DNA of 64,000 bases from Elusimicrobiota bacterium. GTDB lineage: Bacteria > Elusimicrobiota > Elusimicrobia > UBA1565 > JACRDR01. Of this stretch, positions 1,622 to 59,867 are shown piece after piece. The stretch spans positions 2,470 to 66,469 of the forward strand of contig JAPLKK010000033.1 in the NCBI GenBank assembly GCA_026388115.1. Direction: 5' to 3'. Numbering within the stretch: the stretch's first letter is position 1; every line of letters begins with the position of its first letter. Made by a program: the position numbers and the translations under genes. The notes under the pieces were generated by a model, which saw only the letters and a program-made list of their open reading frames with translations, was not told the origin of the DNA and did not search any database.

Positions 1622-3817
1622 ATGACCAAGATCGCGGTGTTCGCGTCGGGCGAGGGAACGAATCTCCAGGCGCTGCTGGACGCGACGAAGAGCCGCCGCA
1701 TCCGCGGCGAGATCATCCTGGTCGTCTCGAACAACGAGGACGCCGGGGCACTACGGCGCGCCGAGCGAGCCGGCGTCGAACGGCTGGTCCTGAAGCCGAA
1801 GGGATTCGCCACCGGCGAGGAGTACTGCGCGGCGCTGGCGGCCGAGTGCAAGAAGCGCAACGTCGAGCTGATCTGTCTCGCCGGATTCCTCCTGCATCTG
1901 AAGAGCCCGCTGCTCTCGGCCTTCCCCGGGCGCATCTTCAACATCCACCCCGCGCTCCTGCCGGGCTTCGGCGGCAAGGGGATGTACGGGCGGCACGTGC
2001 ACGAGGCGGTGCTGGCCGCTGGCGCCAAGGTCACGGGCTGCACCGTCCATTTCGTCGGCGAGAGCTACGATACCGGCCCCATCGTCTCCCAGACGCCGGT
2101 GCCCATCCTGCCGGGCGACACGCCCGCCACCCTGGCCGCGCGCGTGCGCGCGCAGGAGCACTGGGCCTATCCCGAGGCCGTGCGGCTCTTCTGCGAGGGC
2201 AAGCTCCGGATCGACGGCCTCTCCGTCTCGGTCCTGCCCTCCCACCGCGACGAGTCGCCGCGCGTGAGGCGCGCCCTGGTCTCGGTCTCCGATAAGGCGG
2301 GCTTGGCCGAGTTCTGCCGCGGCCTCTTCGACCTCGGCGTCGAGATCGTCTCCACCTCCGGCACGGCCCGCGCCCTGCGCGAGGCGGGCATCGAGGTGCG
2401 CTCGCTCGACACGGTGACGGGCTATCCCGAGATCCTGCAAGGCCGCGTGAAGACCCTGCACCCCAAGATCCACGGCGGCATCCTGCTGCGGCGGAACGAC
2501 CCCGAGCAAGCGCAGGAGGCGGCCGCCTTGGGGCTCGAGCCCATCGACATGGTCGTCGTCAACCTCTATCCTTTCGCCGCCGCGGCGGCGCGCGCCCAGT
2601 CGCCGTACTCCCGCGAGGTGATCGAGCAGATCGACATCGGCGGCGTCACCTTGATCCGCGCCGCCGCCAAGAACTTCGAGGACGTCGCGGTCGTCGTCTC
2701 GCCCGCCGATTACGGCGCCGTCTTGAAGGAGCTCGAGGTGAGCCAGGCGCAGCTCGCGCTGGAGACCCGCCGCCGTCTCGCCCTCGCCGCCTTCCAGCAC
2801 ACGGCCGGCTACGACGCGATGATCTCGTCGGCGTGGAACGAAGGCCAGAAGCCGCTGCCCGCGGCCGGCCTGGAGCGCTTTCCCCAGCGGCTCACCGTCT
2901 CGCTCGAGAAGACGCAGGACCTGCGCTACGGCGAGAACCCGCACCAGCGCGCGGCGCTGTACGCGCCCCGGGGCCGCACGAGCTTCGAGCAGCTCCACGG
3001 CAAGGAGCTCTCCTACAACAACCTGCTCGACGCCGCCGGCACCTGGGACGCGGCGAGCGAGTTCCCCGCGCCCGCCGTCGCCTTCTTCAAGCACGTGACG
3101 CCTTGCGGCATGGCGACCGGCAAGACCCTGCTCGAAGCCTTCGAGAAGGCCTGGGCCTGCGATCCGCTCTCCGCCTTCGGCGGCGTGCTCGCGGTGAACC
3201 GACCGTTCCCGAAGGAGGTCGCGGAGCTGTTGGCCAACCGCTTCGTCGAGGTGATCACCGCGCCCGAGTTCGAGCCCGAGGCATTGGCGCTCCTGAAGAA
3301 GAAGCCGAACCTGCGGCTTCTCGTGCGGCGCGAGCCGCCCTCGCACGACGTCCAGTTGCGCTCCGTCGGCGCCGAGGTGCTGGCGACCGAGCCGGACCGC
3401 ATGACCTTCGGCGACTCGCTCAAGGTGGTCACCAAGCGCGCGCCGACCAAGGAAGAGGAGGCGGCGCTGCGCTTCGCCTGGGTCGCCTGCAAGCACGTGA
3501 AGTCCAACGCCATCGTCCTGGCCGGCACCGACGCCACCGTCGGCATCGGCGCGGGCCAGATGTCGCGCGTGGATTCGGTGCTCCTCGCGGGAGTGAAGTA
3601 CCGGACCTATCTCAAGGACCACCCGGCCCCCGAGCCGCTGGTCCTGGCTTCCGACGCCTTTTTCCCGTTCAAGGACGGCCTCGAGGCCGCCGCGACGCTG
3701 GGCATCTCCGCCGTCATCCAGCCCGGCGGCTCGGTGCGCGACGCCGAGGTCATCCAGGCCGCCGACGAGCACAATCTGGCCATGGTCTTCACCGGCATGC
3801 GCCACTTCAGACATTAG
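1622..3817 (+). CDS. purH: Fused phosphoribosylglycinamide formyltransferase (PurN) and bifunctional AICAR transformylase/IMP cyclohydrolase (PurH)
   Basis: The N-terminal ~200 aa ([20 protein letters not shown]...[12 protein letters not shown]...) is PurN. After a ~20-aa linker comes [34 protein letters not shown]...[12 protein letters not shown], the PurH MGS-like and AICARFT domains. It is one continuous 731-aa frame with no stop. Confidence 0.85.
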
Positions 3818-3826
3818 GCCGTTGTT

Positions 3827-3865
3827 CCCTCTCCCGCGAAGCGGGAGAGGGCAGGGGTGAGGGCA
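3827..3865 (+). repeat. Short palindromic repeat element, type A (CCCTCTCCCG-N5-CGGGAGAGGG-CAGGGGTGAGGGCA)
   Basis: Read directly. It forms a perfect 9-bp stem hairpin plus a conserved tail. It lies between the purNH stop and the next start, and supplies a GAGGG Shine-Dalgarno 7 nt before ATG 3870. Confidence 0.8.
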
Positions 3866-3869
3866 AATT

Positions 3870-4415
3870 ATGATCCTGACAATCGCCGCGCTGACCGCCG
3901 TCCTTTCCGTCCCATCCTTCGCCCAGCCACCCAATCCGCCCGACAAGAAAGCCGAAAGCAATCTCCCCGCCCGCGCTCCCAAGAACAGGACTTTCTCCCC
4001 GAAGGCGCCCTCGACGGCGCTCTCCGACATGAACCTTAAGGTCTCCTTCAAGCTCAAGTTCAAGAGGCTCGAGAGCTCGGGAAATTTCACGGTCCAGAGC
4101 GGCACCCAGGCGAATTACGTCATCGGCGGCGACGATCCCGTTGAGGTAATCACCAAACAGGGCACGGGCATCGAGTTCAAGAAATACGGCACCATCGTGA
4201 ACATCCTCCCCGCCGTCGTGTTCGACAGCGACAAGGTGGACGCCCAGTTGCAGGCGGAGCTCTCGGGCCCGCAGGCGCCCGAGACCTCGCTCAAGGTCAA
4301 CCCCATCTCTACGTTCCAAATCCAGACTGAGTTCACCATCACCCTCGGGAAGACCATCGTCCTGGTGGACGAACCCGACCGCCGCGTCGAAATAAAGATC
4401 GAACCCGCACCCTAA
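3870..4415 (+). CDS. Secreted hypothetical protein
   Basis: Signal peptide MILTIAALTAVLSVPSFAQ. The frame is non-repetitive with an SD supplied by the upstream repeat. No recognised domain. Confidence 0.5.
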   Translation: MILTIAALTAVLSVPSFAQPPNPPDKKAESNLPARAPKNRTFSPKAPSTALSDMNLKVSFKLKFKRLESSGNFTVQSGTQANYVIGGDDPVEVITKQGTGIEFKKYGTIVNILPAVVFDSDKVDAQLQAELSGPQAPETSLKVNPISTFQIQTEFTITLGKTIVLVDEPDRRVEIKIEPAP

Positions 4416-4433: not shown

Positions 4434-4472
4434 CCCTCTCCCGCCGTTCGGGAGAGGGCAGGGGTGAGGGCA
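4434..4472 (+). repeat. Short palindromic repeat element, type A
   Basis: Near-identical copy of 3827-3865 (CCCTCTCCCGCCGTTCGGGAGAGGGCAGGGGTGAGGGCA), in an intergenic position. Confidence 0.8.
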
Positions 4473-4497
4473 GTCGCCGTTTTGTAGACTACACCCG

Positions 4498-5427
4498 ATG
4501 TTTCCGCAACTGGCCCTGGCGTTCGCTGTCGCGCTCCCGCTTTGCGCCTCCCCCCGCGATACTCAGCTATCGCTCATCATCGACGACCGCCCGCGCGCGT
4601 ACCTGCCCCACGTCCCCGCCCTTTCGCCCGATAGGCCCTTGCCGTTGGTAATAGTCCTCCACGGCGGCGGCCAATCCAGCAAGGGCGCGCAGAGGTTCAC
4701 CGGCTTCAACGACCTCGCCGACCGCGAGGGCTTCATCGTCGCCTATCCCGACGCGATCGCGCACAAGTGGAATGATGGGCGCGGGACCACCAAACCGGCC
4801 AAGGGAGGCGTCGACGACGTTCGCTTCATCCGCGAGCTGATCGCGCAAGTCTCGAAGGAGCACAGCGTCGACCCGCGCCGCATCTACGCCACCGGCCCTT
4901 CGAACGGCGGCTTCATGACCCATCGCCTAGCCTGCGAGCTGTCCGATGTCTTGGCCGCCGCCGGTCCGGTCATTGCGGGCTTCCCCTTGGACTATCGCGA
5001 CAGTTGCCGCCCAGCCAAGCCGATTTCGATCATCATGATCCAAGGCACCGCCGACAAGCTGGTGCCCTTCAACGGCGGGCAGGTCGGCGGCAAGGGCCAC
5101 TGGGGCGCGGGCGGCAAGACGGACTCCGCCGAGAGCACGCGCGCCTTCTGGGCTGAACGCGAAGGCTGCAAGGCGCCGCCGGAAACCGCCGACTTGCCGG
5201 ATGAGGCCAACGACGGCACGAAGGTCCGCAAGTACGCCTACACGAGCTGTCAGTCAGGCGTCGAAGTGGTCCAGTACATCGTCGACGGGATGGGCCACCG
5301 CTGGCCCACAAAACACGCGCCGCTCCGACGCCGCGGCCTGGTCACCTGGATGCTCGGCCCCACTACGACCAACATCGACGCCACCGAGACCGTCTGGGAG
5401 TTCTTCAAGGCCCATCCCAAGCCTTGA
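4498..5427 (+). CDS. Secreted esterase of the poly(3-hydroxybutyrate) depolymerase / LpqC family
   Basis: It has a signal peptide. The motifs VIVLHGGGQS, FIVAYPD and the nucleophile elbow GPSNGGFM (GxSxG) are typical of PHB-depolymerase-like esterases (PF10503). Confidence 0.65.
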   Translation: MFPQLALAFAVALPLCASPRDTQLSLIIDDRPRAYLPHVPALSPDRPLPLVIVLHGGGQSSKGAQRFTGFNDLADREGFIVAYPDAIAHKWNDGRGTTKPAKGGVDDVRFIRELIAQVSKEHSVDPRRIYATGPSNGGFMTHRLACELSDVLAAAGPVIAGFPLDYRDSCRPAKPISIIMIQGTADKLVPFNGGQVGGKGHWGAGGKTDSAESTRAFWAEREGCKAPPETADLPDEANDGTKVRKYAYTSCQSGVEVVQYIVDGMGHRWPTKHAPLRRRGLVTWMLGPTTTNIDATETVWEFFKAHPKP

Positions 5428-5528
5428 GAAGTTTACACGCCTTCGGCACCTTGAAGCTTGCGGCGGAGGACCAACACGTATGTTATGTATAATGAGTTTA
5501 CAAGATATATATCGTCTTGTACACACAC

Positions 5529-5559
5529 TTGACAAAAGATGCCATAAACACCATAATCT
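5529..5559 (+). promoter_or_regulatory. Candidate sigma70-type promoter (TTGACA, 18 nt spacer, ATAATC) in an AT-rich leader
   Basis: TTGACA is at 5529-5534 and ATAATC at 5553-5558, only about 8 nt before the ATG at 5566, so the transcript may be leaderless or short-leadered. An extended -10, TGTATAAT, also lies at ~5487. Confidence 0.35.
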
Positions 5560-5565
5560 TGGTGG

Positions 5566-6768
5566 ATGGATACACTTCTAGAGCTCAACGACCTCGCAAA
5601 GAAGCAAGCCGGGAGATACACCAAGAAGCGCCCGATCTTTGAGCGGCTAAAGGCGGACGAAGGGCGAGCCTTCTCGGGGATCATCGGTCCGCGGGGCGTC
5701 GGGAAGACCGTTCTGCTCCGCCAGCTCCTGCGCGAGGTTCCCGACGCGTTCTATGTCTCCGTGGACACCTTGGACGACGCGACTCTCTTCGAGACCGCAA
5801 AGAAGTTGGAAGAGCGTTACGGCGTACGCCTGCTGCTGCTCGATGAGATCCACTTCGCCAAGGGGTACGCCGAGGACCTCAAGAAGATCCACGACTTCCT
5901 CGGCCTGCGCGTCGTGTTCACGAGCTCGGTGGCGCTGTCGCTCGTCCAGAGCGCGCAGGACCTGTCGCGCCGGGCGGTCCTCCGCCGGCTCTGGCCGTTC
6001 ACGTTCCGCGAGTACCTCGACTTCGTCCACGGCAGGCCGCTGCGCGCGTTGAGCCTCGCCGATATCCTCGAGAAGCGTTGGGACCCCGAGCACCTTCGGC
6101 AGGGCCATCTCTTCGACGAGTATCTTACCGGGGGGCTTTTCCCCTTCCGCATGGAACAGCCGGAGACCAAGGCGGTCTTCGAGGCAATCCTTGAGAAGAT
6201 CTTCCAGCGGGATATCCCCCGAACGGCGGGGCTGCGGACGGACGAGCCCGCGCTCATCGAGAAGCTGGTCCGCTTCGTCGGAAAGTCGGCGTGCGACGAC
6301 ATCAGCTACAGCTCGCTCTCGAGGAACCTGGGAATCACCAAGTACAAGGCCGAGCAGTACGTCGCCTTGCTCGACAAAGCGTTCGTCCTCGACCCCGTCC
6401 TGCCGGCGGGGACCAACGTCCTGCGGGAGCCCAAGATACTGATGTCCTTGCCGCTGCGGCTGCTCTACAAGGAACGCGACGAGGCGATCGGAGGGCTGCG
6501 AGAGGACTTCGCGGCCGAGACGCTCAGGATGGCCGGGAAAGAGTTCCACTACCTCAAGAGCCCCATCGGAGGCAAGACCCCCGATTTCCTGGTGACCGAC
6601 CCGGACGGCGACGTCGTCGTCGAGGTCGGAGGCAAGGGGAAGGGCCGGCGTCAGTTCAAGGGCTACCAGGCGCGCAGAAAGGTGCTGCTGACCCCGTCGG
6701 ACTCTCTGGAGGGCGACCGGCGGCCGCTCTTCCTGCTGGGCTTCCTCCCGGCTTCTTGCGAGCCGTAA
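5566..6768 (+). CDS. AAA+ ATPase of the COG1373 / DUF4143 family (C-terminal restriction-endonuclease-like domain)
   Basis: Walker A GPRGVGKT and Walker B LLLLDEIH. The C-terminal DFLVTDPDGDVVVEVGGKG matches a PD-(D/E)xK-like DUF4143 tail. Confidence 0.8.
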   Translation: MDTLLELNDLAKKQAGRYTKKRPIFERLKADEGRAFSGIIGPRGVGKTVLLRQLLREVPDAFYVSVDTLDDATLFETAKKLEERYGVRLLLLDEIHFAKGYAEDLKKIHDFLGLRVVFTSSVALSLVQSAQDLSRRAVLRRLWPFTFREYLDFVHGRPLRALSLADILEKRWDPEHLRQGHLFDEYLTGGLFPFRMEQPETKAVFEAILEKIFQRDIPRTAGLRTDEPALIEKLVRFVGKSACDDISYSSLSRNLGITKYKAEQYVALLDKAFVLDPVLPAGTNVLREPKILMSLPLRLLYKERDEAIGGLREDFAAETLRMAGKEFHYLKSPIGGKTPDFLVTDPDGDVVVEVGGKGKGRRQFKGYQARRKVLLTPSDSLEGDRRPLFLLGFLPASCEP

Positions 6769-7268
6769 GGGCCGTCAGCGAACCCCGACTTTCCCCTCCA
6801 GATCCGCCGCGTGAGCGCCGAGCTCGCGCTCGCCCGGCATGAGGGACGCCTTCCTGCGCGGGCCACCGAACTTGATGATGAGGCCGGCGACCACCGCCGC
6901 AGCGGCGCCGATCGACAGCGTGGCGAGAAAACCGATCATCGGATCATTCGTCCCCACGAATCAAGCTTACTTCTGCGTAGCGCGACAGCCGATGATACCA
7001 ACTTGGTTTTCTGCCTTTCGGTGCTCCTGCTTTTTCAAGTGCTCTGATTGCATGGCCTATGTCATCGGCCAAATCGGCTGTCCAAACGACATCACAGACC
7101 TTGCGAGAGGTGCTGAAGGCTACTAATTGGAAGTCGCAGTCCCGAGGCCATTGTGGCGATTTAAGTTGGGTCCCGTGGTTTGTCTCGACAATCGTTGTTC
7201 CTGTTGCGTCGGTGTCGATAGCAATTGCTAAGTCGAGCATAAATTTCTTCTCTCTCGCATTCTGGTTG

Positions 7269-8024
7269 CTAGACGGTGGTGAGCCAAGAAGTTTGAACTG
7301 TGATTCTCTCTCTTTTCCTAAATCTTAGCGCACCTGACAGCGGGGCTTGATAAATTTCGTGGAATGGAGACTCCCGAAAGTTCTTCACAACGAATAGAAA
7401 GAACCTATCAGCCAAAGATGAAGCGGTCTCATACTCTTTCGGTGTTAGAGATACGCTCCCCGTCCGTTCCTTGAGACCTTTGACTTCGACAGCCAGAAAA
7501 TCTTTTCGGGCGTCTGTTTCGAGTCGAAAATCATAGCCGCAGCCAAGCCGTGTTGTGTTCTCTAGGGCATAACCCTTGAATTGAGGGATATCCTGCCGAA
7601 CCGCTTCGAAGTATTGTTCCGCGGCCAGACCCGTAATGAGGCGTTCGGCGAAGAAGGACTTGCGATCTTCCTTTCCTGATATTTCGCTCCAAGCATTTTC
7701 GTTGTATGAGACAAAAGACTTGATCAACATGGAAAATGTTTCGAGGTCCAAACCTTTATATTCCTCGAACATCTTGCGGCAATAGTCTCGCGTGGGTCGT
7801 CCGTGCCAACCCTTTCGGCGATTGGGAAACAGAGGGTCGAACTCGTCACGGTAATTCTTAATCGAAGCTGGCTTTGCTCCCAGCGCATATCCAACTGCGT
7901 TAAACGCCTCCGCGAAGCTTTCAAAGCCGAGTTTCTTCAAGCCAGTCGAATCATATTTCGAGAGATACAGGCCAACAAGGATGAGTTTCTCCCTGGTTGC
8001 GATTCGCTGTGGATTCAGGATCAT
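7269..8024 (-). CDS. DUF3883-like PD-(D/E)xK nuclease-fold protein in a low-GC islet
   Basis: The C-terminal GCGYDFRL...FLAVEVKGLKE...SLTPKEYETA...FFLFVV matches the DUF3883 pattern (GYDi ... iEVK ... Lt.nE ... YyLyvV). The N-terminal half is unrecognised. The surrounding ~1.3 kb is visibly AT-richer than the flanks. Confidence 0.55.
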   Translation of the reverse strand: MILNPQRIATREKLILVGLYLSKYDSTGLKKLGFESFAEAFNAVGYALGAKPASIKNYRDEFDPLFPNRRKGWHGRPTRDYCRKMFEEYKGLDLETFSMLIKSFVSYNENAWSEISGKEDRKSFFAERLITGLAAEQYFEAVRQDIPQFKGYALENTTRLGCGYDFRLETDARKDFLAVEVKGLKERTGSVSLTPKEYETASSLADRFFLFVVKNFRESPFHEIYQAPLSGALRFRKRERITVQTSWLTTV

Positions 8025-8277
8025 ATCGCCCGGGTTCTGTCTTTGTTCATCAAACAGGGGGACGTTTTCGCCGAAACTGGGCGGGAACTGTCAGGGAGCG
8101 CACGCTGGGAGAGTGTGGCAGTCAGCAACATTAGATTCAGGATCAGGCAAAGCGGATTGTGTGATTGTACCATACCCACTATGTGCGAATGAGTTGGCCC
8201 AAAAATGCATGTGAGAGAAACCCGAAGCAAGAAATTCGCCACGACTGGGAAGTGCTTTTGCCACAATCGCTCTTTAG

Positions 8278-8347
8278 GTAAGCAAGCCAAGCGGGGTTTG
8301 GGCCCTGGAAGACGGAAGCGTCTTCCGGGGTTTTCCATGCGGGGCTG
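8278..8347 (+). repeat. Upstream direct-repeat copy of the carA 5' end (gene fragment)
   Basis: GGTAAGCAAGCCAAGCGGGGTTTGGGCCCTGGAAGACGGAAGCGTCTTCCGGGGTTTTCCATGCGGGGC is about 90% identical to 8895-8964, the real carA start ([19 protein letters not shown]). The fragment's frame terminates after about 35 codons. Confidence 0.8.
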
Positions 8348-8428
8348 ACGGAGAGGCGAAGGGAACCTTTTCGCTCCTGATTCGTACTAGTGGGTGGGGG
8401 CCGCGCCAGGGGAGGGCCCGCGCTCCGC

Positions 8429-8457
8429 TTGACGGTAGCAGGGGGCGCTGATACACT
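8429..8457 (+). promoter_or_regulatory. Candidate sigma70 promoter (TTGACG, 17 nt spacer, TACACT)
   Basis: Read directly. It lies 7-20 nt upstream of the retropepsin-like ORF start codons (GTG 8464 / ATG 8479). Confidence 0.4.
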
Positions 8458-8463
8458 GACTTT

Positions 8464-8901
8464 GTGGCGCGAAAGAAGATGGGGACATTCCACGAGCCGA
8501 TCGAGGTTTTGAATCCGTCCAACCGGCGGCGCAAGATTTCACTGGATGCTTTGGTCGACACGGGCGCCGCCTACAGCTTGATTCCCGGAAGGCTGCTGCG
8601 CGGCATCGGCGTGAAGCCGTCGCGCACGGGCCGGTTCAAGCTCGCCGACGGACGGATCGTCCACCGCGGCGTAGGACTGGTCACCGCCCGCGTCCGGCGC
8701 GAGGAGACTCCGACATGGGTCGTATTCGGCGACGCGGAGTCCGACCCGCTTCTCGGAGCCTTGACGCTGGAGGAGCTTGGTCTGGGCGTCGACAGCATCC
8801 ATCGAAGCCTCGTCAAGGTTACGCCCTTGCCGCTGTCGGCCTGCTTGCGTCCAGCCGCGCCTACCTCCACAGGACTTTTGCTACACTCCCTGCCGAGGTG
8901 A
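8464..8901 (+). CDS. Retropepsin-like (clan AA) aspartyl protease family protein
   Basis: The active-site motif ALVDTGAAYSLIP (D-T/S-G-A) sits in a ~120-aa domain typical of bacterial retropepsin-like proteases (PF13650/PF13975). The likely start is ATG 8479. The C-terminal extent is uncertain because the frame runs into the carA start region. Confidence 0.6.
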   Translation: MARKKMGTFHEPIEVLNPSNRRRKISLDALVDTGAAYSLIPGRLLRGIGVKPSRTGRFKLADGRIVHRGVGLVTARVRREETPTWVVFGDAESDPLLGALTLEELGLGVDSIHRSLVKVTPLPLSACLRPAAPTSTGLLLHSLPR

Positions 8902-10032
8902 GCAAGCCGAGCGGGGTTCTGGCCCTGGAAGACGGAAGCGTCTTCCGGGGTTTTTCATGCGGGGCCGAAGGCGAGGCGGGCGGAGAGCTGGTCTTCAACA
9001 CCTCGATGACGGGCTACCAGGAAGTCCTCACCGACCCCTCCTATAAGGGCCAGCTTGTCGTGATGACGTATCCGCAGATCGGCAATTACGGCATCACCGC
9101 GGAAGATAACGAATCGAAAAAGCCATTTCTTGAGGCGTTCGTCGTCCGGGAGCTGTGCCGGCATCCCTCCAACTGGCAGTCGGTCGAGACGGTCGAGTTC
9201 TTCCTCAAGAAGCACGGCGTGTGCGCGATCGAGGGCATCGACACGCGCGCGCTGACGCTCAAGCTTCGCGATAAAGGGTCTTTACGCGCGATCGTATCCT
9301 CCGTGGACCTCGACGGCAAACGGCTGGTCGAGAAGGCGCGCGGGCTGCCGTCGATGGCCGGAAGCGACTTTGCGCAGACGGTGACTTGCGACAAGGCGCA
9401 TCCCTGGACGGAGAAGCTCCAGGCGGGACCCTCGGGCCTTGGCGAGTTCCTGGTGCCCGGGCGACCGCTGCATGTCGTCGTGGTGGATTTCGGCGTGAAA
9501 TACAGCATCCTCCGCTGCCTTGCGACGCTCGGTTTTCGCGTGACGGTCGTGCCGGCGAAAATGACGGCGGAGGAGATCCTCGCGCTCAAGCCGGACGGCG
9601 TGCTCCTCTCCAACGGCCCAGGCGACCCGGAACCGGTCACTTACGCCATCGAGACGATCAAGAGGCTCATCGAGACAGGCACGCCGCTGTTCGGCATCTG
9701 CCTCGGCCATCAGCTTCTTGGGCTGGCGCTGGGCGCAAAGACGTTCAAGTTGAAGTTCGGCCATCATGGCGCCAATCATCCGGTCAAAGATCTGACCACG
9801 GGAAAGATCGAGATCACGACGCAGAACCATGGCTTCTGCGTGGATATAGATTCCCTGCCGCGCGAGGTGAAGACGACGCACGTCAATCTCAACGACGGGA
9901 CCTCGGAGGGGATGGCGCACACACAGCTGCCGCTCTTCTCCGTGCAATATCATCCGGAGGCGGCGGCGGGGCCGCATGACACGAGGTATCTCTTCAAACG
10001 ATTTGGCGAGGTGATGGTAGAGAAGAAGATTC

Positions 10033-10040
<8 letters not shown>
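8898..10040 (+). CDS. carA: Carbamoyl-phosphate synthase small (glutamine amidotransferase) subunit
   Basis: GTG start giving [49 protein letters not shown], with the class I GATase triad region (GICLGHQLL...HHGANHPV). It overlaps the carB start by 8 nt. Confidence 0.9.
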
Positions 10041-13285
<3,245 letters not shown>

Positions 13286-24381: not shown

Positions 24382-24390
24382 AGTCTTTCT

Positions 24391-24464
24391 CCCTCTCCCG
24401 CCTAGGGCGGGAGCCTCCGCCGTTCCCCCTCTCCCGCGTTCGGGAGAGGGCAGGGGTGAGGGCA
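24391..24464 (+). repeat. Tandem pair of palindromic repeats (partial hairpin plus full type A copy)
   Basis: CCCTCTCCCGCCTAGGGCGGGAG is followed by CCCTCTCCCGCGTTCGGGAGAGGGCAGGGGTGAGGGCA. It lies between two convergent genes and is likely terminator-like. Confidence 0.8.
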
Positions 24465-27822: not shown

Positions 27823-29056
27823 GAAGGACTTTGACCGCCAGAACGAGGGCAACGATCACTAGAGCAGCAAGGGCGGCGACGACGAATTTGCCCTCACCCC
27901 CACCCTCTCCCGAAACGCGGGAGAGGGAGACCGGAGGCTTGCCCTCACCCCCCACCCCAGCCCTCCCCCACAAGGGGGGAGGGAGAACGACCCTGAGGGA
28001 GAGTTTAGCGGGTGGACGACCGCTGGCGCGCTGAGTCTTGCGCGCGGCAGGCGGCGCCGCGGCGGGCGGGGCCACAGCCGAGATCTTCATCGGGCCGACG
28101 GAGTCGCGCCCCCCCGCCGCGAGCGCGTCGCCCTCGGGAGAGAACACGAGGCGCTCGATGACCACCGGCCGCCCCGCCTGCGTCCAGCCGTCCGCCTTGC
28201 CCGCCCGCCGGCCCGTGCGGGCATCCGTGAAAAGCACGGCACCTTCCGCGTCGGAGTGGGCCAAGAGGCGGCCGTCGGGAGAGAAGGCGACCGCGTTCGC
28301 CGCGGCGACCGCTCCCGCGTCGCTCTTCCACTCCTCCTTGCGCGCCGAGAAATCCCACAATGCCAACTCCATGCGGGAGCCGCCGTCGCGAAGAAAGACC
28401 AGCTGGGTCCCGGCGGGCGAAAAGACGAGCGCGTGCATCCGCCCTCCCGAGGGAGCTTGGGCCGCGAGCGCGCCGGTGACCGCGTCCCAAACACGCAGGG
28501 ATCCGTCGCGGCAAGCCGCGACTACGATGAGGCCGTCAGGCGAGAAGGCGAAGGCTTCGGTCGCGGCGCACGAGCTTTCCAGCCTGGCGGCGGCCAGCCG
28601 GCGCATGTCGAAGAGCGAGAGCCCTCGGTCCTCCGAGTCCCACAGAAGACGATACCCTTCCGGCGACAAGAGCGCGCGCACCTCGCCTCGGTGCAGACCG
28701 ACATCGAGCGCGCGCTGAGTCCCGGTCGCCATGTCCCAATAGCGCAGGCCGCCCACGCCAGGCAACGGCGAGAGGATGGCGGCCTTGGGATCGGCGGCCA
28801 AGGCGACGAGAAACAGGCTCGCCGGCGCGGCGATCGCCTGCTTCTGCCGGCCCCCGTCCAGGTCCCACAGGCGCACTTCGGAGCCGCTTTCGCCGCCGGC
28901 GGCCGAGACCAGGGAACGGCCGTCCGGAGAGAAAGCGAGGCCCGAGAGCTTACCGCCGCGGCCGGACAGGGTGAGCCGCTCTTTGACAGCCACTTCGGCG
29001 GCCTGAGCCGACGCGGCGAATGCCGCCGTGAGAAACAACAGCGCGCGAAGCCTCAT
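27800..29056 (-). CDS. Secreted WD40/beta-propeller repeat protein with repeat-element-derived C-terminal extension and hydrophobic tail
   Basis: Start at MRLRALLFLTAAFAASAQA, followed by multiple LxFSPDG...WD-type blades. The last ~90 codons read through two palindromic repeat copies (27889-27983), then a TM-like FVVAALAALVIVALVLAVKVL plus RQNK. Confidence 0.65.
   Translation of the reverse strand: MRLRALLFLTAAFAASAQAAEVAVKERLTLSGRGGKLSGLAFSPDGRSLVSAAGGESGSEVRLWDLDGGRQKQAIAAPASLFLVALAADPKAAILSPLPGVGGLRYWDMATGTQRALDVGLHRGEVRALLSPEGYRLLWDSEDRGLSLFDMRRLAAARLESSCAATEAFAFSPDGLIVVAACRDGSLRVWDAVTGALAAQAPSGGRMHALVFSPAGTQLVFLRDGGSRMELALWDFSARKEEWKSDAGAVAAANAVAFSPDGRLLAHSDAEGAVLFTDARTGRRAGKADGWTQAGRPVVIERLVFSPEGDALAAGGRDSVGPMKISAVAPPAAAPPAARKTQRASGRPPAKLSLRVVLPPPLWGRAGVGGEGKPPVSLSRVSGEGGGEGKFVVAALAALVIVALVLAVKVLRQNKTAG
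27889..27927 (-). repeat. Palindromic repeat, type A, inverted orientation, inside WD40 gene 3' region
   Basis: TGCCCTCACCCCCACCCTCTCCCGAAACGCGGGAGAGGG is the reverse complement of the type A consensus. Confidence 0.8.
27941..27983 (+). repeat. Palindromic repeat, type B (CCCTCACCCC...CCCTCCCCCACAAGGGGGGAGGG)
   Basis: Variant hairpin CCCTCCCCC-ACAA-GGGGGGAGGG, preceded by the CCTCACCCC box. Confidence 0.75.
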
Positions 29057-54590: not shown

Positions 54591-54617
54591 CGACGTATTT
54601 TAGGATATCGGAAGGAC

Positions 54618-55560
54618 TTATGAACCCTCACCCCGACCCTCTCCCGCCGTTGGCGGGAGAGGGAGAGCGTGGTATACGGCGAGGGCTTCCTGCACGGTTC
54701 GGGCATGGAGGGCCACGGTGTCCTCGAGCTTGGGGGCATAGCCCCCGCCCAGCGTCAAGACGACCGGGATGCGCCGGTCCTCGCAGGCGGCGAACACGAA
54801 CTGGTCGCGCGCGGCGATGCCGTTGGCGGTCAGCTTCAGGCTCGCCAAGAGGTCGCGCTCGTGCACGTCCACGCCGGCCTGATAGACGACGAGGCCCGGC
54901 TCGTGACCGTCCAGAGCGGTAGGCAGGCGCGAGCGCAAGAGCTCCAGATACTCGATGTCGCGCGTCCCGGTGGGCAGCTCGATGTCCATCGTGCTCTTCT
55001 GGCGAGGCTGGGGATAGCCGTCCTTCTGATGCATCGAGAAGGTGAACACGTCCGGCTCGCCGGCGAAGATCGACGCCGTGCCGTTGCCCTGGTGCGCGTC
55101 GAGGTCGACGACGAGGGCGCGCCGCACGACCTTCTCGCGCCGCAAGGTCTCGATGGCGAATGCGATGTCGTTGAACATGCAGAAGCCCTCGCCATGGTCG
55201 CGGAAAGCGTGATGCGCGCCGCCGCCGATGTGCAGGCCCAGGCCGCCCTCGAGCGCCAGCCGCGCGGCCGCGAGGGTCCCCCCCGCCGCGAGCGCGTGCG
55301 CCTCCATCCCCGGGCGCGACCATGGCAGCTCCATCATGGTCTCCTCGTCCAAGGTGAGCGCGCCGGTGCCCGCGCGGCGGACCCAATCGGCGGCGTGCAC
55401 GAGCCCCAGCGCCTCGGGAGACGGCATCTCAGGCTCGACGCGCCGGTCCGCATCGAGCGCGCCCTCCGCCATGAGCTTCTCGGCGGTGCGCTGGAACTTC
55501 AGGGTGGGAAACGTGTGCGCGCCGATATCGACGGTATAACGCGCCGAAAAGACCCAGTGG
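54618..55560 (-). CDS. Histone deacetylase-family (AcuC/HDAC-like) protein
   Basis: Zinc/catalytic motifs HIGGGAHHAF, FCMFNDIAF, DLDAHQGNGT. The N-terminus ...LFHWVFSARYTVDIGAHTFPTLKFQR lies in frame upstream of the first ATG (55472), so the start is non-ATG and overlaps the tonB 3' end. The C-terminal PLPPTAGEGRGEGS is encoded by a repeat element. Confidence 0.7.
54625..54663 (-). repeat. Palindromic repeat, type A, inverted orientation
   Basis: CCCTCACCCCGACCCTCTCCCGCCGTTGGCGGGAGAGGG. It forms the last codons and stop of the HDAC-like gene and the spacer to the prfB start. Confidence 0.8.
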
Positions 55561-59012: not shown

Positions 59013-59867
59013 TCACGGTTTCGGAAACAAGGAGCAGGCACGCAGGTCTCTTACGAACCCCTCCTTCATCGGCGCGCCCGGCCAGGGCAGCCACCCCGGC
59101 TCGGGGGCGAACTCGACGGAGGTGCCGCCGCAGCGCGCTTCGATCCAGCCCGGACGGCCGGCGGAAAGCGTCCAGCCCTTGAGCCAGAGCTCGCCGGGCC
59201 TCATCCCGTCCACGAAAACGACGGCGGCGCGAGGATGAAGGAGCAGCACGGCCGCTCTGGCCGCGCTGAGCCGGCACGCCCGCGCGCGCCGGACAACGAG
59301 GTCATGGCAGGCGCCGCGGCCGATGAGGGCCGCCTCGCGGCGCAACGCCCGCCGCGCCCGCGCCCGCCGCGCCAAGAGCCCAAAGCGGCCGAGGATGAGC
59401 GCGAGGAAAGCGGCAACGACGCTTGCCCTCACCCTACCCTCTCCCGAACGTCGGGAGAGGGAAAGAGGCCGTTCTCCCTCTCCCACCGAAGGCGGGAGAG
59501 GGCCGGGGTGAGGGCAAATCCTCCACTGTCCGAACCGCTCTCGCACCGCTTCCAGCCGGCCCGAGCCGTCCGCGGCTTCGAAGGACACGCGCGCTCGATT
59601 CCAGTCCTCCATCGCGAGCCCCACCCGGCTCCCCGGCCGCGCCTCGGCCGGGATGCGCTCATGGCGCCAGCCCTCGCCGGGCCACGATGCCACGCGTTGG
59701 GCCAGATACGGCTCGTTTCCATACAGATAAGCGACCCGCTCCAACCCGTCCGGACCGCGCGCGGCCTCGGATATCACGATGGCCGGATCCAGCCGCCCGG
59801 GGCCGCCGACCCTGTCGAGGGGCCCGCCAGGCTGGGAAAGGAAAAGCGCCAGAGCCGCGGTGATCAT
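59013..59867 (-). CDS. Hypothetical protein carrying an in-frame inverted pair of palindromic repeats (low confidence)
   Basis: The 284-codon frame from MITAALALFLSQP has GC-rich third positions and continues through 59424-59516 (31 codons of repeat-derived PHPGPLPPSVGEGERPLSLSRRSGEGRVRAS). It has no recognisable domain and could be non-coding. Confidence 0.25.
   Translation of the reverse strand: MITAALALFLSQPGGPLDRVGGPGRLDPAIVISEAARGPDGLERVAYLYGNEPYLAQRVASWPGEGWRHERIPAEARPGSRVGLAMEDWNRARVSFEAADGSGRLEAVRERFGQWRICPHPGPLPPSVGEGERPLSLSRRSGEGRVRASVVAAFLALILGRFGLLARRARARRALRREAALIGRGACHDLVVRRARACRLSAARAAVLLLHPRAAVVFVDGMRPGELWLKGWTLSAGRPGWIEARCGGTSVEFAPEPGWLPWPGAPMKEGFVRDLRACSLFPKP
59424..59516. 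repeat. Inverted pair of type A palindromic repeats (59424-59461 inverted, 59476-59516 direct)
   Basis: TGCCCTCACCCTACCCTCTCCCGAACGTCGGGAGAGGG ... CCCTCTCCCACCGAAGGCGGGAGAGGGCCGGGGTGAGGGCA. Confidence 0.8.

Follow-up and report, generated by a model that had tools for sequence, protein, structure and literature searches.

A duplicated carA 5′ end at a variable upstream spacer in an Elusimicrobiota genome

The carA gene in the 64,000-nt stretch of Elusimicrobiota DNA analyzed here (the window) is preceded by a second, defective copy of its own 5′ end, and a gene for a retropepsin-like protein lies between the two copies. These repeats make better sense as a junction where two alternative forms of the carA upstream spacer meet than as the borders of a single insertion. 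The left copy looks like a pseudogene stub, which is the original promoter-proximal end of carA positioned between swappable accessory islands. We favor, with a probability of roughly 0.55, an origin by recombination in which a carA allele located behind an island with a NOV_C gene received a patch of ∼0.65 kb that carried a promoter, the retropepsin gene, and a new carA 5′ end.

A working and a dead carA 5′ end

The two direct repeats (Table 1) align over 104 nt with 86% identity and an offset of 620 nt. The alignment begins ∼23 nt 5′ of the start codon. An earlier note on this DNA had placed the copies at 8278–8347 and 8895–8964 with ∼90% identity and 547 bp between them. The repeats are real, and 64 of 70 nt (91%) match when 8278–8347 is set against 8898–8967, but the right-hand coordinates had been given 3 nt too early, the repeat is longer than supposed, and the unique DNA that separates the copies measures 516 bp (8359–8874). 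Translation of both copies yields VSKPSGV(W/L) and the 11 residues that follow, much as the note had read them.

All 15 mismatches (left-copy positions 8262, 8266, 8269, 8272–8275, 8280, 8289, 8299, 8300, 8335, 8346, 8349, and 8352) fall in 70 nt of the repeat, and the other 34 nt form a core with none. If mismatches were evenly spread, a mismatch-free run of this length would have a chance of 0.025. The core occurs exactly twice in the window, compared with an expectation of zero from 100 shuffles, and a search throughout the window revealed neither a third copy of the repeat nor a further copy of the insert. The earlier view that the event was not very recent is supported. A simple tandem duplication was rejected because the sequences 3′ of the left and right copies are unrelated, as are those 5′ of them.

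Table 1. Features of the carA locus, in window coordinates
Feature	Coordinates	Strand	Basis or remark
Conserved left flank with a 60-aa ORF; left edge of the variable slot	6775–6965	−	L083/L090, 88%–93% identity
98-aa partner of NOV_C	6944–7240	−	Two-gene module
Low-GC (48%–52%) island: two-gene module plus 230 nt upstream of NOV_C; ends where the left copy begins	6966–8254	−	Pfam, GC, strain comparison
NOV_C/DUF3883 gene	7269–8024	−	Pfam
Left copy, dead carA 5′ stub	8255–8358	+	Repeat alignment; no Pfam match
Identical core; 12–15-bp hairpin, then a run of 4–5 T	8301–8334 (twin 8921–8954)	+	Repeat alignment, folding
Junction/filler, ∼26–29 nt	8359–8387		No match to carA, related strains, or any fetched sequence
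Retropepsin upstream region with a sigma70-like promoter, TTGACG-17-TACACT (8429–8457)	8388–8478	+	Common to related strains
Retropepsin-like (clan AA) gene, 140 aa	8479–8901	+	Pfam, DTGA motif
Right copy: 23 nt upstream plus codons 1–27 of working carA	8875–8978	+	Repeat alignment; strain contigs
carA, 380 aa, start GTG at 8898	8898–10040	+	Pfam, TIGR01368
Divergent carA block, ∼8% nt difference from L090 (2%–3% on either side)	9035–10100	+	Divergence profile; right edge approximate

As the earlier note had recognized, only the right copy runs on into a functional gene, whose product matches the Pfam families CPSase_sm_chain and GATase and scores 497 bits against TIGR01368 (cut-off 307). The left copy carries GTA (8278–8280) where the carA GTG start is expected and an in-frame TAG directly 5′ of it (8275–8277), and therefore cannot initiate translation. 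Its reading frame remains open for 57 codons (stop at 8449–8451) rather than the ∼35 that had been claimed, although only codons 2 to ∼27–29 retain homology with carA. Every one of its eight coding differences is unique to the stub, and several alter conserved residues. Residues W8, P20, and K28 of the stub appear in none of the ∼120 CarA amino termini compared. In annotation, 8255–8358 is better marked as a carA pseudogene fragment than as an att site.

The DNA upstream of the dead start is more informative about ancestry. The stub preserves an old extended −10-like box, TGcCACAAT (8259–8267), which corresponds to the −10 region of L092, a contig from the nearest species and one that lacks the retropepsin gene. 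Over the upstream 25 nt, the stub differs from this outgroup at four positions and the right copy at seven, and the comparison includes TGcTACAAT and CTTCTTTAGG. This pattern argues that the stub derives from an allele in which carA was under its own promoter. A distant donor is not indicated, because the derived residues G6, V7, and S14 are common to the stub and to this lineage's own carA. The right copy is the unusual one in its upstream 10 nt, where 5–6 clustered positions are unlike both the stub and L092. Homology between the copies begins precisely where the low-GC DNA ends (8254/8255).

The sole gene between the copies encodes the 140-aa retropepsin-like protein, which in the NCBI annotation has 145 aa and starts from GTG 8464. 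The earlier note had correctly identified both this clan AA aspartyl-protease ORF, which scores above cut-off for PF13650 and PF13975 and conserves the DTGA motif, and the sigma70-like promoter in front of it. The last ∼19 codons (from ∼8845), which are not conserved, extend across the former promoter region of carA, and the TGA stop overlaps the GTG of carA. On the left side of the gene, carA homology stops at 8355–8358 and homology with related strains resumes at 8385–8388. The 26–29 nt of filler between these points resembled nothing among all of the sequences fetched for comparison.

A variable slot upstream of carA

Members of this Elusimicrobia species cluster differ in what lies between purH and carA, a variable slot occupied by one or another accessory island. 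Five contigs from related strains (94%–98% identity) carry the retropepsin gene joined to carA but have no left copy. In three of these (L083, L090, and L091), positions 6966–8384 are replaced by the same unrelated 272 bp, which includes a 66-aa ORF. All three match the window from 8385 rightward, and in L083 and L090 the match returns on the left, as far as 6965. The stub is thus the right end of a strain-specific segment. In the other two (L081 and L082), homology starts only at 8424, where an IS with an rve transposase abuts. The slot therefore shows three arrangements, one of them an IS insertion, among strains just 0.2%–2.5% apart.

The earlier note had proposed searching relatives for an empty site, and the outcome was divided: L092 and the similarly more distant L093 have neither the insert nor the repeat, whereas the five close contigs keep the insert and lack only the left repeat. 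The note had also named an observation that would count against its reading, namely relatives with the retropepsin gene upstream of carA and no duplicated fragment, together with a left copy that proved to be a conserved leader. The first half describes the five contigs exactly, but the stub is specific to the strain of the window. The right copy differs from each of the five contigs at zero or one position. It belongs with its own promoter, retropepsin gene, and carA start, as was implied by the earlier suggestion that the incoming DNA brought its own copy of the target.

Comparison with L090, a 27-kb strain contig reached via a cluster look-up, revealed a second discontinuity inside carA. 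Codons 1–45 have a dS of 0 and codons 46–380 a dS of 0.269. A maximum chi-square analysis places the breakpoint at 9035, with 14 differences in 647 nt on one side and 80 in 1006 nt on the other (permutation P < 0.002). Identity to the L090 type extends through the right copy and 56 nt beyond it, up to the switch in sequence type at 9035. Within the divergent block, 46 changes are unique to the window and 26 to L090.

The stub and the right copy differ with a dS of 0.268, close to the 0.269 of the 3′ block of carA. Two pieces of one allele, here called D-type, that was split by a patch would be expected to agree in this way. However, synonymous sites in the first 27 codons are strongly constrained (dS 0.05 between L092 and the right copy), so the match may be partly coincidence and the divergence of the stub largely decay. 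Should decay account for most of it, the event would be as old as, or older than, the split between the strains.

The island to the left of the stub contains a NOV_C gene and its partner, a module that is scattered across phyla. The nearest nonidentical NOV_C homolog is 77% identical. No convincing terminal inverted repeat or target-site duplication was found around 6966–8387. The left flank is unusually diverged from L090, with a dS of 0.40 for the esterase gene compared with 0.08–0.11 for carB and the genes downstream from it. Since carB and everything beyond it lie at background divergence, the D-type segment itself requires an earlier import or a deep polymorphism. Moreover, the five strain contigs form a group outside which the window falls, so parsimony does not separate gain of the stub from its loss.

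Proposed recombination at carA and competing explanations

As to which allele received the DNA, and by what route, we infer the following. One version of the locus, the D-type, would have consisted of the conserved flank, the low-GC NOV_C/DUF3883 module, the carA promoter, and carA. The other, the L090-type, has the same flank, then the 272 bp with its 66-aa ORF, and then a promoter followed by the retropepsin gene, whose translation is coupled to that of carA. An L090-type patch of ∼8385–9034, comprising the promoter, the retropepsin gene, and carA codons 1–45, would then have entered a D-type allele. Its right end would have been resolved by a homologous crossover within carA near 9035, and its left end by an illegitimate joint, with 26–29 nt of filler, to D-type carA after codon ∼29 (8358). 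The pathway may have been homology-facilitated illegitimate recombination or the single-crossover integration of a circularized fragment. In either case the product would be an intact carA driven by the retropepsin promoter, with the old carA 5′ end stranded 620 bp upstream and decaying (GTG to GTA, L8W, S20P). An intact D-type carA would be expected to present the NOV_C upstream region (8025–8254) followed by the stub sequence running on to “...GAGCTGGTCTTCAACACC”. No NOV_C homolog directly beside an intact carA was encountered among the NOV_C homologs or in a metagenome scan, in which the exact core 26-mer recovered L083 again and two unrelated organisms only.

If this reconstruction is correct, then the locus is a natural example, from an uncultivated phylum, of accessory islands beside a housekeeping gene being swapped between strains. 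It would also illustrate how one-sided recombination can rewire an essential gene, in this instance by leaving carA cotranscribed and translationally coupled with a retropepsin-like gene and its old promoter behind as a fossil. Events of this kind are already known, and the locus reveals no new element or mechanism.

Homology-facilitated illegitimate recombination, which combines one homologous anchor with one illegitimate joint, is attributed to Acinetobacter, Streptococcus pneumoniae, and Pseudomonas stutzeri in passages of PMC5361080 and PMC3240628 that cite the original work. At carA, the sequence type changes inside a conserved gene at ∼9035, the other end of the patch is a novel joint whose filler lacks homology, little DNA was inserted, and part of the recipient gene has been left stranded. 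The locus departs from the usual result in that the outcome is a duplication rather than a deletion, and in that the event is deduced here from a mosaic.

One-sided recombination and single-crossover events are both known to leave duplications of 109–950 bp and stranded gene ends (PMC3240628; PMC5361080). For single-crossover (Campbell-type) integration of circular fragments in Escherichia coli, the direct duplications are 109–950 bp (PMC3240628). The repeat-insert-repeat order at carA, with 104 bp duplicated across a gene 5′ end and one intact copy surviving, resembles such products. Unlike in them, the type switch at ∼9035 lies outside the repeat, which ends at 8978, and neither copy looks like a hybrid. 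Mismatches between the stub and the right copy lie to either side of the core, although later gene conversion may have altered the pattern. Displacement arrays at T6SS effector–immunity, Rhs, and CDI loci, where incoming modules orphan the displaced gene ends (PMC5361080), likewise involve a slot beside a conserved gene, modules exchanged between strains, and gene-end relics at the borders. Those relics are orphan 3′ ends, often functional immunity genes, whereas the relic at carA is a single noncoding 5′ stub of a housekeeping gene.

A transfer in the opposite direction is possible, although we regard it only as a tentative alternative. An L090-type genome would have received D-type DNA (esterase, AAA ATPase, NOV_C island, and carA) that was anchored on the left by homology and joined illegitimately on the right at 8385, with carA 9035–10100 as a second donor segment. 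The patch at 8385–9034 and the region from carB onward are equally 2%–3% from L090, so the patch could be native, and the low-GC island and diverged left flank look foreign. Mosaic and discontinuous transformation outcomes have also been described (PMC13344027). This direction, however, demands two donor segments plus an illegitimate end, compared with one patch and one crossover for the preferred transfer into a D-type allele, and the two D-type parts of carA lie on either side of the patch, exactly as they would if it had split one allele.

An old duplication in place is unlikely. In this scenario, the arrival of the retropepsin gene in the common ancestor of all these strains duplicated 104 bp of target, for example through template switching or the integration of a circle by a single crossover, and the stub was later lost elsewhere through replacement of upstream DNA. 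That all eight coding differences are confined to the stub, several at conserved residues, suggests long neutral decay, and the fast turnover of the upstream slot would provide the later replacements. Left unexplained are the clustered differences in the 10 nt upstream of the right copy and the breakpoint at 9035, and the left edge of the later replacement would have to coincide with that of the NOV_C island.

It is quite improbable that a metagenome assembler created the arrangement by joining two co-occurring strains. The window does come from a MAG contig, strain variants of the locus co-occur in metagenomes, the junction at 8358–8388 is known from one assembly, and two Logan contigs stop exactly within the shared core, at 8330. 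Yet a graph assembler switches between strains only in shared k-mers, and the 3′ junction of the stub (8356–8388) is unique sequence, so reads that carry carA codon ∼29, the filler, and the DNA upstream of the retropepsin gene must exist. A break at 8330 is also what a 31-mer graph produces if both copies are present in a sample.

The idea that the stub is kept for a function deserves very little weight. Its promoter and terminator might insulate the retropepsin–carA operon from the NOV_C island, or it might give rise to a small RNA that serves as a decoy of the carA 5′ end. Its −10-like box, hairpin, and T-run are all intact, and its core is free of mismatches (P = 0.025). On the other hand, the core is conserved anyway in every functional carA of the clade, and the stub is missing from the five close strains as well as from L092 and L093, which is not the distribution of a conserved carA leader or attenuator. 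The hairpin is no more stable than synonymous-codon shuffles (z = −1.2, P = 0.15) and is not conserved in carA genes beyond the closest species, and neither it nor the stub has a match in Rfam. An attenuator within the coding region, formed by the hairpin and T-run at carA codons 9–20, was rejected on these same grounds of control-level stability, limited conservation, and the lack of an Rfam match. A broader speculation must be considered a long shot: either the promoter, dead start, and terminator hairpin of the stub have been kept together to serve as an insulator or as a regulator-titrating RNA, or gene-end duplications mark the recurrent transfer of homology-capturing, promoter-bearing mini-cassettes in Elusimicrobia.

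Some integrative elements target the start of a gene and bring a promoter and a new 5′ end to take the place of the old ones, as SXT/R391 elements do at prfC. The earlier note had interpreted the carA repeats as the footprint of a site-specific insertion into the carA 5′ end or of an old duplication. In the insertion reading, the repeats would be attL and attR of a small element that targets and replaces the carA 5′ end. The resemblance lies in the direct repeats of the target 5′ end and in incoming DNA that brings a promoter and a start. We give this reading hardly any credence, given that the locus has no defined att core or element-sized insert, that no recombinase occurs within or beside the 516 bp (the retropepsin gene is accompanied only by antisense ORFs without a Pfam match, and the neighbors are NOV_C, AAA ATPase, esterase, and carA/carB), that no second copy of the segment exists in the window, that close strains hold the supposed element with the right repeat only, and that 14% repeat divergence is too great for a recent att pair.

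The distribution of the retropepsin gene is similarly at odds with an element that recurs with the same ends. The earlier note had advised looking for other copies with similar flanks, and the homologs found elsewhere reside in toxin–antitoxin-type islands and never beside carA, with unrelated flanks in L084, L100, and L102. A species-level genome collection yielded 80 carA loci (CarA identity of 70% aa or less), and no retropepsin gene lies within 6 kb of any of them. Exact-protein look-ups with the 140-aa retropepsin and with carA returned no match, and the cassette proteins matched no PHROGs phage family.

Also in line with the favored recombination is L100, another Elusimicrobia contig. 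There, comparable gene-end stubs flank small inserted genes in three cases, and two of the three duplications surround retropepsin genes or their 75-aa partners.

Two copies of the carA 5' end

The DNA is part of an Elusimicrobia MAG contig 125.5 kb in length (proteins MCX5787525 to MCX5787529). The earlier note had described a duplication of the carA 5' end around a retropepsin-like gene, which is confirmed, although the repeat is longer than was stated there. It comprises 104 nt (8255-8358 versus 8875-8978; direct, offset 620, 86% identity), and spans about 23 nt 5' of the start codon plus approximately 27-29 codons. Between its 15 mismatches (8262, 8266, 8269, 8272-8275, 8280, 8289, 8299, 8300, 8335, 8346, 8349 and 8352) lies an identical 34-nt core (8301-8334 and 8921-8954) that occurs exactly twice in 64 kb, where none would be expected by chance. 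The core is free of mismatches (p = 0.025 if these were evenly spread) at least in part because this stretch is conserved at the DNA level in every functional carA of the clade.

The right copy is the true carA start, as its gene carries the Pfam CPSase_sm_chain and GATase domains. The gene scores 497 bits against TIGR01368 (cut-off 307), the N-terminus of its product can be aligned with those of about 120 homologues, and its GTG at 8898 shares nucleotides with the TGA (8899-8901) that ends the retropepsin-like gene. The left copy has GTA at the start position, an in-frame TAG directly upstream and no alternative start codon, and it cannot be translated. It also encodes W8, P20 and K28, residues found at those positions in 0 of about 120 CarA relatives (L8 is present in 118 of 122). 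These features identify it as a relic, or stub, of the carA 5' end.

The coding part of the stub has G6, V7 and S14 in common with this lineage's own carA, where the residues are A, I and T in the nearer other species L092 and L093; the stub accordingly comes from within this species cluster rather than from a distant donor. A comparison of the 25 nt preceding the start with those of L092 gives 4 differences for the stub and 7 for the right copy. Stub and L092 both have an extended -10-like box, TGc(C/T)ACAAT, and CT(C/T)TTTAGG just before the start, where the right copy has TACACT and CTGCCGAGG. This match indicates that the stub preserves promoter-proximal sequence of a carA that was once its own transcription unit. 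In the right copy, the corresponding sequence has become the C-terminal tail of the retropepsin ORF, a part that is not conserved. A -10-like box lies only about 10 nt before the carA GTG, and thus the carA mRNA may be nearly leaderless.

The first 20 carA codons contain a GC-rich hairpin of 12-14 bp with a downstream TTTT(T) run, a structure that recurs at codons 9-20 of carA in L092 and L093. A coding-region attenuator was considered and rejected because the stability of the structure is not above that of synonymous-codon controls (p = 0.15) and it is missing from L001, a more distant carA locus, and from other more distant carA genes. Hairpin and T-run are mostly a by-product of the codons for a 10-residue stretch of the protein.

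Features of the locus and of related loci (window positions unless a locus is named)
Feature	Position	Strand	Remarks
PurN-PurH-like fusion	1622-3817; L093 2590-4797	+ (window)	
Secretin-like fragment	3870-4415	+	
Esterase	4498-5427; L090 80-1012	+ (window)	
AAA_14/DUF4143 ATPase	5566-6768	+	PADLOC candidate PDC-S01
60-aa ORF	6775-6957	-	
Low-GC segment	6966-8254	-	GC 48-52%
NOV_C/DUF3883 gene	7269-8024	-	In low-GC segment
98-aa partner of NOV_C	6944-7240	-	
NOV_C module	6944-8024; L095 3195-4264	- (window)	
carA stub	8255-8358	+	Direct repeat
Core hairpin and T-run	8921-8959; twin 8301-8339		
TTGACG-17-TACACT	8429-8457		Precedes retropepsin-like gene
Retropepsin gene	8479-8901	+	140 aa, clan AA; PF13650/PF13975; DTGA motif conserved
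carA, then carB	8898 onwards	+	Pfam
REP-like repeat	54617-54666, 59432-59514, 27891-27930, 24387-24462, 3826-3863, 4434-4470; L090 3216-3265, 1-49		
IS with rve-type transposase gene	L081 1-1243; L082 1-1273		Ends just upstream of retropepsin promoter
Retropepsin and partner pairs	L084 4865-5477, 6151-6757; L100 2248-2995		
Hairpin-unit arrays	L084 1638-1809, 3802-3861, 5944-5982		
64-nt repeat	L100 2543-2606, 3001-3064		91% identical
84-nt repeat	L100 4830-4913, 6119-6202		

A variable slot between purH and carA

Among the 80 best carA loci of a species-level genome collection (at most 70% amino-acid identity), none has a retropepsin gene within 6 kb of carA. L092 (CarA 89% identical) has no retropepsin gene, and 70 nt upstream of its carA lies a gene for a Vsr-type endonuclease; in L093 (CarA 80% identical), also lacking retropepsin, the interval from the purH fusion to carA is occupied by small Zn-ribbon and HTH genes. 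From this it follows that the spacer between purH and carA is a variable slot. Its conserved left border is an apparent PurN-PurH fusion of 731-735 aa (Formyl_trans_N + MGS + AICARFT/IMPCHase) that is kept in the sister species.

Retropepsin-carA is present in all five contigs from close strains (94-98% DNA identity), and the left copy in none. Three of them (L083, L090 and L091) match the window from 8385-8388 rightwards and have the same unrelated 272 bp (GC 51%) in place of 6966-8384; L083 and L090 also match over 6821/6849-6965. The stub is therefore the right-hand end of a strain-specific segment, and the two-copy homology starts exactly at the end of the low-GC DNA. In L081 and L082, the match starts only at 8424, where it abuts an IS that has two 32-nt subterminal direct repeats, GGGCC(C/T)ATTCGGGAACATCTTAG(G/A)TGAGTTGA.

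The AAA ATPase gene, whose best PADLOC match is the candidate defence family PDC-S01, is strain-specific and represents an insertion of about 1.35 kb (5424-6776). It is absent from L090, which has only about 50 nt there. The low-GC island contains a conserved two-gene module, in which NOV_C/DUF3883 (251-254 aa) is followed 26-28 nt downstream by a 92-98-aa partner that has no known domain. The module recurs in different phyla (Verrucomicrobia, Acidobacteria and others), with protein identities of 70-77% and a GC content that is always below that of the host. The module at another locus, L095, is 71% identical to window 8023-6994 at the DNA level, and the partner 60% identical (E = 2e-42). In PADLOC, the NOV_C domain had weak matches to the C-terminal ends of TmtA.

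A short GC-rich palindromic repeat resembling REP elements, CCCTCACCCC-N-ACCCTCTCCCGCC...GGCGGGAGAGGG, is interspersed at many intergenic sites. Two copies bracket the secretin-like fragment, and another sits between carA and carB in L090 and L091; in the window these genes overlap by 8 nt.

A mosaic carA and its possible history

Synonymous divergence (dS) between the window and L090 is 0.40 for the esterase left of the slot, 0.15 for the small ORF, 0.09 for the retropepsin gene, 0.23 for carA, and 0.08-0.11 for carB and four further genes. The esterase value is far above those right of carA, and therefore divergent flanks move with island alleles. Within carA, window and L090 are identical over 8875-9034 and then differ by about 8% as far as about 10100. 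A maximum chi-square test puts the breakpoint at 9035 (14 of 647 nt differ on one side and 80 of 1006 nt on the other; permutation p < 0.002), with a dS of 0 for codons 1-45 and 0.269 for codons 46-380. L081 and L091 display the same step. Relative to L092, the diverged block carries 46 changes unique to the window versus 26 unique to L090.

Stub and right copy differ over codons 1-27 by a dS of 0.268 (dN 0.06), which equals the divergence of the carA 3' block. Since the first 27 codons show an unusual constraint that extends to synonymous sites (dS 0.05, L092 versus right copy), part of the stub divergence must be decay after the event, and the match of 0.268 with 0.269 may be partly luck. 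Most simply read, the stub (codons 1 to about 29) and the 3' block (codons 46-380) would be two pieces of one diverged carA allele, here called D-type (flank, low-GC NOV_C island, own carA promoter, carA).

We favour, at a probability of roughly 0.55, the entry of a linear patch into this allele. The D-type carA would have been positioned directly behind the NOV_C island and then split by a patch (approximately 8385-9034) of L090-type DNA (flank, 272 bp, promoter, retropepsin gene, carA), which supplied the promoter and the retropepsin gene together with a new 5' end for carA. Its right end would be a crossover within homology near 9035, and its left end a joint without homology. Similarity to carA stops at 8355-8358, that to the strains starts at 8385-8388, and the intervening 26-29 nt match nothing. 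One homologous end together with one non-homologous joint is the signature of homology-facilitated illegitimate recombination. The earlier interpretation is supported in part, in that the left copy is a relic of the carA 5' end and the incoming DNA brought its own copy of the carA start. Integration of a circularised fragment by a single crossover is a closely related possibility. In a study of Escherichia coli, single-crossover events yielded 109-950-bp target duplications and outnumbered true one-sided events (PMC3240628), and a comparable origin has been proposed for the orphaned gene ends of T6SS and Rhs arrays (PMC5361080). The duplication is another instance of an already known sort of recombination scar, and it would illustrate clearly how, in nature, the exchange of islands can rewire a housekeeping gene's promoter.

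Two other histories are retained because the window is an outgroup to the five strain contigs and no D-type parent was found, either in a metagenome scan with the core 26-mer or among NOV_C homologues. The entry of a D-type island into a retropepsin-carA genome is unlikely, and an older duplication that arose in place and then disappeared from the other strains is more doubtful still.

Site-specific insertion, with the repeats as the two ends of a 547-bp element, had been put forward earlier and did not hold up. No recombinase or other domain beyond retropepsin was detected between the repeats and no recombinase in the neighbouring genes, a check of the window for further copies of the segment returned none, relatives carry the insert without the left repeat, and homologous retropepsin genes elsewhere occupy toxin-antitoxin-type small-gene islands with unrelated flanks. 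An assembly artefact also seems unlikely because the sequence at the 3' junction of the stub is unique, and a graph assembler has no way to switch between strains there. Two Logan contigs of other sequencing runs match 4468-8330 at 100% identity and stop at 8330, 30 nt inside the core, which is the point at which a 31-mer graph must break if the sample holds both copies. A conserved carA leader (absent from relatives, no Rfam match) and a simple tandem duplication (unrelated flanks of the two copies) were rejected.

Gene-end stubs and small modules at other loci

In 1.08 Mb of loci examined, 14 dispersed direct repeats (50-250 nt, at least 80% identity, spacing 200-3000 nt) were found, five of them in the Elusimicrobia small-gene islands L084 and L100. 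In L100, the 64-nt repeat consists of two copies of the 3' end of a retropepsin-like gene (130 aa), with a 75-aa gene inserted between them and the native stop retained in the orphan copy, and the 84-nt repeat duplicates a ParE 3' end around two toxin-antitoxin pairs. Gene-end stubs therefore recur at the borders of small accessory modules in these genomes, which suits a general recombination process better than it does a specialised element.

Small retropepsin-like genes repeatedly occur in a pair with the gene for a protein of about 75 aa or a DUF5678 protein, in islands rich in HicAB, Uma2, DUF433 and ParE/Phd genes. The former partners (77 aa in L084, 75 aa in L100) are 51% identical (E = 1e-24), and retropepsin plus small partner could constitute an undescribed two-gene module; the window retropepsin has no such partner. 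Between its small same-strand genes, the L084 island also has hairpin units of 33-40 nt (CGTATCGAAC...GTTCGATACG and variants) that are arranged in arrays. No integrase was seen on this 8-kb contig, and the arrays are REP/BIME-like or possibly attC-like.
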